A stretch of 64,000 nucleotides of DNA from NCBI RefSeq assembly GCF_003334405.1, contig NZ_QOWM01000003.1; one strand, given 5' to 3'. The notes under the pieces were generated by a model. It was not told the DNA's origin. It did no database searches and saw only the letters and a program-made list of their open reading frames with translations. Origin of the DNA: Escherichia coli. Lineage in GTDB: Bacteria; Pseudomonadota; Gammaproteobacteria; Enterobacterales; Enterobacteriaceae. Both the position numbers and the translations under genes were made by a program. Every line of letters starts with the position of its first letter. Positions within the stretch are counted from its first letter, which is position 1. Below, in pieces: positions 17,572 to 18,147 of the stretch.

Positions 17572-18147
17572 ATGGAATACTTTGATATGCGTAAAATGTC
17601 GGTGAATCTGTGGCGAAATGCTGCCGGTGAAACGCGCGAAATTTGCACGTTCCCACCGGCAAAACGTGATTTTTACTGGCGTGCCAGCATTGCATCCATC
17701 GCGGCGAATGGGGAGTTTTCTTTGTTTCCCGGCATGGAAAGGATAGTGACGTTGCTGGAAGGCGGCGAGATGCTCCTTGAAAGCGCAGACCGCTTTAACC
17801 ATACCTTAAAACCGTTCCAGCCTTTTGCCTTTGCAGCGGACCAGGTGGTAAAAGCGAAACTGACGGCAGGGCAGATGTCGATGGATTTCAACATCATGAC
17901 ACGCCTGGATGTCTGTAAGGCGAAAGTCAGAATTGCCGAACGTACGTTTACTACCTTTGGCTCACGCGGCGGGGTGGTGTTTGTGATTAACGGGGCGTGG
18001 CAACTGGGCGATAAATTGCTCACTACCGACCAGGGCGCGTGCTGGTTCGATGGCAGGCACACCCTGCGGCTTTTACAACCGCAAGGTAAACTGTTGTTCA
18101 GTGAAATCAACTGGCTCGCTGGTCATTCGCCGGATCAAGTTCAGTAA
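17572..18147 (+). CDS. ves: HutD-family protein Ves
   Basis: Start trimmed to ATG 17572 (MEYFDMRKM, 191 aa); 3' end overlaps cho 3' end convergently. Confidence 0.85.

Follow-up and report, generated by a model that had tools for sequence, protein, structure and literature searches.

A convergent 41-nt coding overlap between ves and cho in Escherichia coli, probably left by near-neutral drift of stop codons

The genes ves and cho of Escherichia coli face each other, and their last codons are written on opposite strands of the same DNA. The question this locus raises is whether the shared 3' ends form an antisense switch between the two genes or only mark a place where stop codons have moved. 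We addressed it in a stretch of 64,000 nucleotides (the window) with the ORF list, the sequence, orthologous loci and published transcript data. The features in question are:

17572-18147, + strand: ves, an ORF and RefSeq CDS of 191 aa plus a TAA stop, encoding a HutD-family protein.
18107-18994, - strand: cho, an ORF and RefSeq CDS of 295 aa with a GTG start and a TGA stop, encoding a UvrC-like GIY-YIG excinuclease.
18107-18147, both strands: the convergent 41-nt coding overlap, from the ORF coordinates and RefSeq.

The shared coding sequence of ves (+, 17572-18147) and cho (-, 18994-18107) was found to be exactly 41 nt in the ORF list and in the sequence itself. The TAA stop of ves occupies 18145-18147 (+), while cho begins with the GTG at 18994 (-) and ends with a TGA that is the reverse complement of 18107-18109. 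Each gene contributes 12 sense codons, its stop and 2 nt of one codon more (I179 in Ves, I283 in Cho), and the "last 13 codons" assigned to each gene by a sequence-only reading are therefore correct when the stop is counted. From the coordinates, ves codon positions 1, 2 and 3 lie opposite cho positions 1, 3 and 2. Identical ends were annotated by RefSeq/PGAP in NZ_LT838196.1. Positions 2090024-2154023 of that genome run collinear to the window and differ from it by 23 mismatches over 64 kb, without indels, so its coordinates transfer directly (ves 17572-18147 and cho 18107-18994 in window coordinates). The convergent 41-nt overlap described by that reading was thus borne out by the ORF list, the sequence and the RefSeq coordinates.

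The gene order in the window is that of the E. coli chromosome, astCADBE-spy-ves-cho-nadE-osmE-chb. The 1.7-kb locus was found in 5426 out of 5426 complete E. coli genomes, with at least 80% coverage in 5424, and the 41-nt overlap was also present in the three most divergent E. coli strains fetched. The overlap is already known: all standard E. coli annotations have it, and a published catalogue of transcript overlaps includes the pair.

Many long convergent overlaps in databases are 3'-end extensions created by frameshifts or errors (PMC2478687), and a wrong stop codon, or an ORF that is not a gene, would make this overlap unreal as well. Ves matched the NCBIfam equivalog NF008488 "environmental stress-induced protein Ves" over residues 1-191 of 191, with 427 bits against a cutoff of 292. 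Its residues 8-175 are covered by Pfam HutD, and it matched the PDB HutD structure 5fcc (E=1.6e-15). Cho matched the equivalog NF007833 "excinuclease Cho" with 580 bits (cutoff 367) over residues 1-287, the model having 289 positions; the last eight E. coli residues fall outside this family consensus. Structures of the UvrC GIY-YIG domain matched Cho residues 23-111. Judged by NCBIfam, Pfam, PDB relatives and the orthologues in the 80 species loci described below, both overlapping ORFs are genuine conserved genes. The same ends were found in independent complete genomes and, among the loci fetched, in the four E. coli lineages that diverge most and in related Escherichia species, and 41 nt is shorter than the 60 nt at which artefacts dominated in the database survey (PMC2478687). 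The overlap is 3'-3', so it would persist whatever start codons were assigned. Identical RefSeq ends, two genes that pass curated models along all or almost all of their length, and this 3'-3' arrangement mean that it survives a check for revised starts and stops. An annotation or sequencing artefact, which we hold to be extremely improbable, was rejected as effectively refuted by the independent genomes and the curated family models.

To describe how the junction varies, we fetched 80 species-level Enterobacteriaceae loci (GTDB species) with the Cho query and located both stops by script. The two genes overlap in 53 of the 80 loci, by 41 nt (15 loci), 32 nt (5), 23 nt (16), 15 nt (3), 10 nt (1), 7 nt (6), 4 nt (5) or 45 nt (2). 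All 15 loci with the 41-nt form are from Escherichia and Citrobacter. The 23-nt form was found in most Enterobacter and in Lelliottia, the 7-nt form in Phytobacter and others, and the 4-nt form, TTAA, is that of Kosakonia. In five further loci the genes are separated by a gap of 3-48 nt, and in the four of these with gaps of 28-48 nt (L047, L053, L055 and L067, from Pseudescherichia and relatives) the spacer contains a GC-rich palindrome. The gene ves lies 1.8 kb away from cho in three loci and was not found in the fetched flank of cho in 19. The gene that cho faces directly in 10 of these 19 is spy, at a distance of about 75-200 nt; Salmonella, Klebsiella pneumoniae, Raoultella, Pluralibacter and C. 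sedlakii are among these 10. Where both genes are present the junction is tight (overlap or gap of at most 48 nt) in 58 out of 61 loci. The junction is very labile in Enterobacteriaceae, and the convergent gene ends slide freely.

The spacer palindrome is perfect, as in the example gcccgcctgccg...cggcaggcgggc from the gapped genera, and could represent either a bidirectional terminator or the insertion of a REP-like element. Several fetched loci had peculiarities of their own. L087 (NZ_CP027701.1) has an IS1A element upstream of ves, between this gene and spy. In L088 (NZ_CM149872.1) a prophage with Mom and Com genes sits inside cho, of which only the last 300 nt remain, with the 41-nt overlap intact. 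Both disruptions are strain-specific. One MAG, "Citrobacter sp. HRGM_Genome_0066" (L002 and L061), holds an E. coli-type cho (98% identity) plus a Citrobacter-type cho. The cho-ves locus on the "Chryseobacterium sp. 18061" contig (L044) is of the Enterobacteriaceae type and almost the same as in Citrobacter sp. 18056 (L075). These last records look mislabelled or mixed.

The differences in overlap length were traced to the C-terminal ends of the two proteins. The parts of the overlap that correspond to these ends are:

18127-18147, + strand: the Ves C-terminal extension SPDQVQ and stop, found in Escherichia and Citrobacter only, lying over the conserved Cho residues I283-T284-E285-L286.
18107-18136, - strand: the variable Cho tail, residues 287-295 (DPANDQRAS) and stop, lying over the conserved Ves residues N180-H185.

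In most genera Ves ends in ...LLFSEIxWLPGH* (185 aa) and in some in ...SEITYL* (181-182 aa); SPDxVQ* is added only in Escherichia and Citrobacter. The codon of Ser186 in these two genera, TCN, stands exactly where other genera have a TGA or TAA stop, one substitution away. Small in-frame indels also distinguish the junctions of different genera. The last invariant residues were found to be Ves I179 and Cho L286. The residues beyond Cho L286, 1-9 in number according to genus, are unrelated and differ even among Escherichia species (e.g. DPVNSLPAS). In loci that do not overlap, or barely do, Ves has 181-185 aa and Cho mostly 286-288 aa (293 in Salmonella), compared with 191 and 295 aa in E. coli. 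Positions 18109-18126 encode the conserved end of Ves, N180-H185, and 18137-18148 that of Cho, I283-L286. Each conserved C-terminal end is thus covered only by the presumably dispensable tail of its partner.

Among 16 sequences with the 41-nt form, 5 of the 6 ves third positions vary in 18109-18126 (18 nt sampled), compared with 43 of 50 in the region that codes for ves only. This points to Ves as the selected frame in 18109-18126. Such small counts are consistent with, and not decisive for, synonymous drift in ves that rewrites the Cho tail. The second half of the overlap varies little, and its last 12 nt are almost invariant between Escherichia and Citrobacter. Dual coding would explain this near-invariance, and an RNA-level role could also have its place there. 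The AlphaFold model of Cho, a mediocre one with a mean pLDDT of 67, places the last strand at residues 282-285 and gives residues 290-295 values below 50, which would fit a floppy tail but carries little weight. The Ves model (mean pLDDT 44.9) is unusable for judging disorder of the tail.

We then considered how ordinary such an overlap is. Past the last conserved residues, Ves has a tail of 6 codons and Cho one of 9, and the chance of a stop-free run at least this long in random sequence is 0.75 and 0.65, respectively. Of the nine convergent pairs in the window, two overlap: ynjH/nudG share 35 nt and ves/cho 41 nt. Three further pairs are nearly spacer-less: ydjO/tcyP (3 nt; 29377-31575), selO/hemP (3 nt; 51265-52896) and ynjF/ynjE (8 nt; 1106-3042). 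Junctions of convergent genes without a spacer are common in this region, and the ves-cho overlap is no more than is expected by chance.

The properties of the pair are those of a described class of overlaps. Rogozin is said to have proposed in 2002 that convergent overlapping pairs are created by mutation of stop codons. A change of stop codon is also given as the origin of convergent overlaps in two further surveys (Huvet & Stumpf 2014, PMC4161906; Lillo & Krakauer 2007, PMC2174442), in which 75 (PMC4161906) or 58 (PMC2174442) such overlaps were counted in E. coli. As in this class, the ves-cho overlap is 3'-3', joins two conserved genes and has the phase 123:132, which is the commonest, accounting for 49% of prokaryotic convergent overlaps of at least 5 nt (PMC2174442). 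It likewise consists of C-terminal extensions that are missing in orthologues, and its length varies between close genera. Neither ves nor cho has an intrinsic terminator, in common with 80% of E. coli genes so overlapped; a rho-independent terminator was found in only 20% of them (PMC2174442). The pair thus shows everything by which the class is recognized: genuine genes, overlapping 3' ends, and a C-terminal extension with shorter orthologues. Its 41 nt exceed the modal 4 nt, but otherwise nothing essential sets it apart.

We next analyzed the signals that could end transcription at the junction. A pattern scan found no intrinsic terminator in or beside 18107-18147, and no inverted repeat was found in 17900-18400. 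The RNA of the overlap showed no unusual structure on either strand when compared with shuffled sequences (z = -0.83 and -0.31). Given the 3'-3' arrangement, full-length ves and cho mRNAs share at least 41 nt of complementary sequence, and since the junction contains no intrinsic terminator, full-length transcripts run into the antisense of the partner. The RNA made by such read-through is C-rich and G-poor on both strands, at 18250-18450 on the + strand (from ves) and at 18050-17900 on the - strand (from cho). By its base composition alone, it may favour termination by Rho.

Bidirectional terminators, or termination driven by colliding polymerases, between convergent genes were reportedly described by Ju in 2019. 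The ves-cho junction resembles such systems (Wang 2022, bioRxiv 10.1101/2022.10.23.513370) in being convergent with essentially no intergenic space, and the relatives with a 28-48-nt spacer resemble them in their GC-rich palindrome. However, a stem-loop is needed to position polymerase collisions (Wang 2022, bioRxiv 10.1101/2022.10.23.513370), and we found no GC-rich stem-loop with A- and T-tracts at the E. coli boundary. The sole strong hairpin lies within ves and is strand-asymmetric:

18060-18088, - strand: a 12-bp hairpin in cho-sense RNA that begins 19 nt past the cho stop, inside ves codons, with no U-tract after it.

Read in the cho sense, this hairpin has a dG of -21.7 kcal/mol (z = -4.24), and none of 200 shuffled sequences folded as well; in the ves sense it is weaker (-15.2, z = -1.84). 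All Escherichia sequences examined keep the hairpin; of the three substitutions seen within it, two fall in the stem and one in the loop, and they leave it intact or make it stronger. In Escherichia it may mark or protect the 3' end of cho, or be there by chance. If it worked as a non-canonical terminator or as a block to exonucleases, and so formed the functional 3' end of cho mRNA, cho transcripts would end about 47 nt past the stop and form a short, defined duplex with ves, an outcome compatible with a neutral overlap as well as with a regulatory one. Its strength, its strand asymmetry and the three substitutions speak for such a role. We nevertheless consider the role improbable, since the U-tract is missing, no Term-seq 3' end is curated there (though cho is barely expressed without SOS), and half of the stem derives from the conserved Ves codons T-L-R. 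In addition, the hairpin is absent from most Citrobacter despite the same 41-nt overlap, and in other genera 64% of its pair positions are able to pair, compared with 36-46% in slid controls. As a conserved feature of the arrangement the hairpin was rejected, the full hairpin being found only in Escherichia among the genera sampled.

Published 3'-end data place premature ends of cho transcripts within the gene itself:

18725-18970, - strand: a zone of premature cho termination, from the Term-seq and Rho data of Adams 2021, supplementary files 1-3 (PMC7815308).

These data comprise 3' ends from unstressed cells and bicyclomycin data, and we mapped their MG1655 coordinates to the window. A cho-sense Term-seq 3' end whose read-through depends on Rho lies 25 nt into the ORF (window 18970; MG1655 1823539(+)), with a Rho score of 3.5 and the flag "Yes", and a Rho termination region lies about 270 nt into cho (window about 18725; MG1655 1823784(+)) with a score of 3.87 and p = 2.5e-7 (PMC7815308). 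At the overlap and around it the supplements of Adams 2021 list no curated 3' end, nor do they list a Rho region on the antisense strand of ves or cho (PMC7815308). In unstressed cells many cho transcripts may thus stop short of the overlap, and the Term-seq and bicyclomycin sites suggest an attenuation of cho beyond its control by LexA.

The two genes were also found to have different promoter signals:

17492-17519, + strand: the FliA (sigma-28) promoter of ves, AACGTAAATCACCCGAGTTGCCGATAAC, from Fitzgerald 2014 (PMC4183435) and located in the window.
19010-19025, strand not assigned: a LexA-box-like palindrome, CTGGTTATCTATCCAG, found by pattern match 16 nt upstream of the cho start.

The -10 element of the FliA promoter reads GCCGATAA at 17511-17518. 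According to what is said of work by Fernandez de Henestrosa (2000) and Moolenaar (2002), cho (ydjQ) belongs to the LexA regulon, and ves is reportedly induced at low temperature (Yamada, 2002). For ves RNA the motile wild type gave a value of 18 and a fliA deletion a value of 0, a difference that was not flagged as significant (Fitzgerald 2014, PMC4183435).

An Rfam scan of 16800-19300 found nothing within ves or cho. Between cho and nadE it placed ES036/CssrF at 19102-19144 (-), with 42.9 bits and above the gathering score, and naRNA4 at 19148-19184 (+), with 26.9 bits and far below the gathering score of 59.5. We take both to be families built on REP elements, and the region presumably holds REP sequence.

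Against this background we asked whether the pair is an excludon. By their coding overlap and by published RNA-seq (PMC12288877), ves and cho are opposite-strand neighbours with overlapping transcripts. The pair is one of 165 convergent excludons of MG1655, with transcript overlap in at least 50% of 58 transcriptomes (Sanmartin 2025, PMC12288877). As in the excludons of the original Listeria concept and of the E. coli map (PMC12288877), it is convergent, its genes belong to different regulons, its transcripts overlap, and it is listed in the core excludome. Unlike the class, which is defined by reciprocal expression and processing by RNase III, cho-ves was placed by transcript overlap alone. 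Its overlap also lies in coding sequence and not in UTRs only, and the arrangement is evolutionarily labile. For a pair that overlaps in coding sequence, RNA-seq will almost automatically detect a transcript overlap if the two genes are both expressed.

In a functional excludon, collision of polymerases and/or cleavage of the duplex by RNase III would make ves (FliA/cold) and cho (LexA/SOS) mutually exclusive, and the overlap would be kept. The core list of 165 includes the pair, no terminator insulates ves from cho, and the two genes carry different regulatory signals, a FliA promoter and a LexA-like box, all of which favours such a function. Further support comes from the class as a whole: overlapping terminators are predicted in 146 of the 165 pairs, and convergent excludons show higher synteny and less co-expression in single cells than other neighbours, these being figures for the class only (PMC12288877). 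The abutting arrangement is moreover widespread in Enterobacteriaceae, and its tightness in nearly all of the two-gene loci could reflect selection for overlapping transcripts rather than a deletion bias. We nevertheless regard a functional excludon as unlikely. The near-automatic detection lowers the weight of the listing, and p19 capture of dsRNA, which failed as a validation for convergent pairs generally, is uninformative for those of E. coli (PMC12288877). The literature searched yielded no experiment on the cho-ves pair, and no direct evidence for antisense interference, for reciprocal expression under SOS and cold or for joint expression under SOS. Among genera the junction ranges from an overlap of 45 nt to a gap of 48 nt, some with an inserted palindrome, and Salmonella, Klebsiella and others keep cho without an adjacent ves. 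Both genes are weakly expressed (the ves RNA-seq value being the 18 given above), and the Rho-dependent termination signals in cho lie well before the overlap. Because of this weak expression and early termination, collisions and duplexes should be rare.

The sequence-only reading had proposed that each transcript must read into the coding region of the other gene, with a potential for antisense interference. The first part holds structurally, given the 3'-3' arrangement, the lack of a terminator and the published RNA-seq overlap. As to the potential for interference, the complementarity is real, but the comparative data (labile length, spacers with palindromes, cho without ves) speak against a selected function of the overlap itself. 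A broader version of the idea would make cho-ves a working excludon in Escherichia, in which FliA- or cold-driven ves damps leaky or SOS-induced cho and the reverse, with the hairpin at 18088-18060 setting the cho 3' end and the length of the duplex. In its widest form, FliA-dependent non-flagellar genes would act as antisense brakes on genes for DNA damage or nucleotide sanitising. We consider this broader version quite doubtful.

Near-neutral drift of stop codons, at a spacer-less convergent junction of two real and independently regulated genes, is probably the best explanation. The complementarity of the transcripts would then be unavoidable and probably inconsequential. The stop that ancestrally followed His185 of Ves would have turned into a Ser codon in the lineage of Escherichia and Citrobacter, and Ves would then read six codons further, to a TAA over the Cho I-T-E-L codons. 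Separately, Cho would read nine poorly conserved codons past Leu286, to a TGA over Ves Ile179/Asn180. The sequence of each tail would be dictated by selection on the conserved partner. Each RNA polymerase would enter the antisense of the other gene and probably be stopped there by Rho, which is likely because the antisense RNA is untranslated and C-rich. We infer that the overlap arose by these stop shifts, that Rho is the terminating factor, and that an antisense effect, if any, is small and does not account for the overlap.

Seen in this way, the locus offers a natural series at one junction, from overlaps of 45-4 nt through gaps of 3-48 nt, most with a palindrome, to the loss of ves. It makes a convenient textbook case, and one might use it to test whether short convergent coding overlaps carry any regulatory cost. 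If reciprocal regulation were true, it would link SOS to the flagellar and cold regulons, a modest addition to a known mechanism.

The second convergent coding overlap in the window, of 35 nt, is formed by ynjH (374-646, +) and nudG (612-1019, -). Like cho, nudG handles damaged or non-canonical nucleotides. As with ves, ynjH depends on FliA although it is not a flagellar gene (PMC4183435), and nudG-ynjH is also in the ExcludonFinder list (PMC12288877). The parallel between ynjH/nudG and ves/cho may be coincidental.
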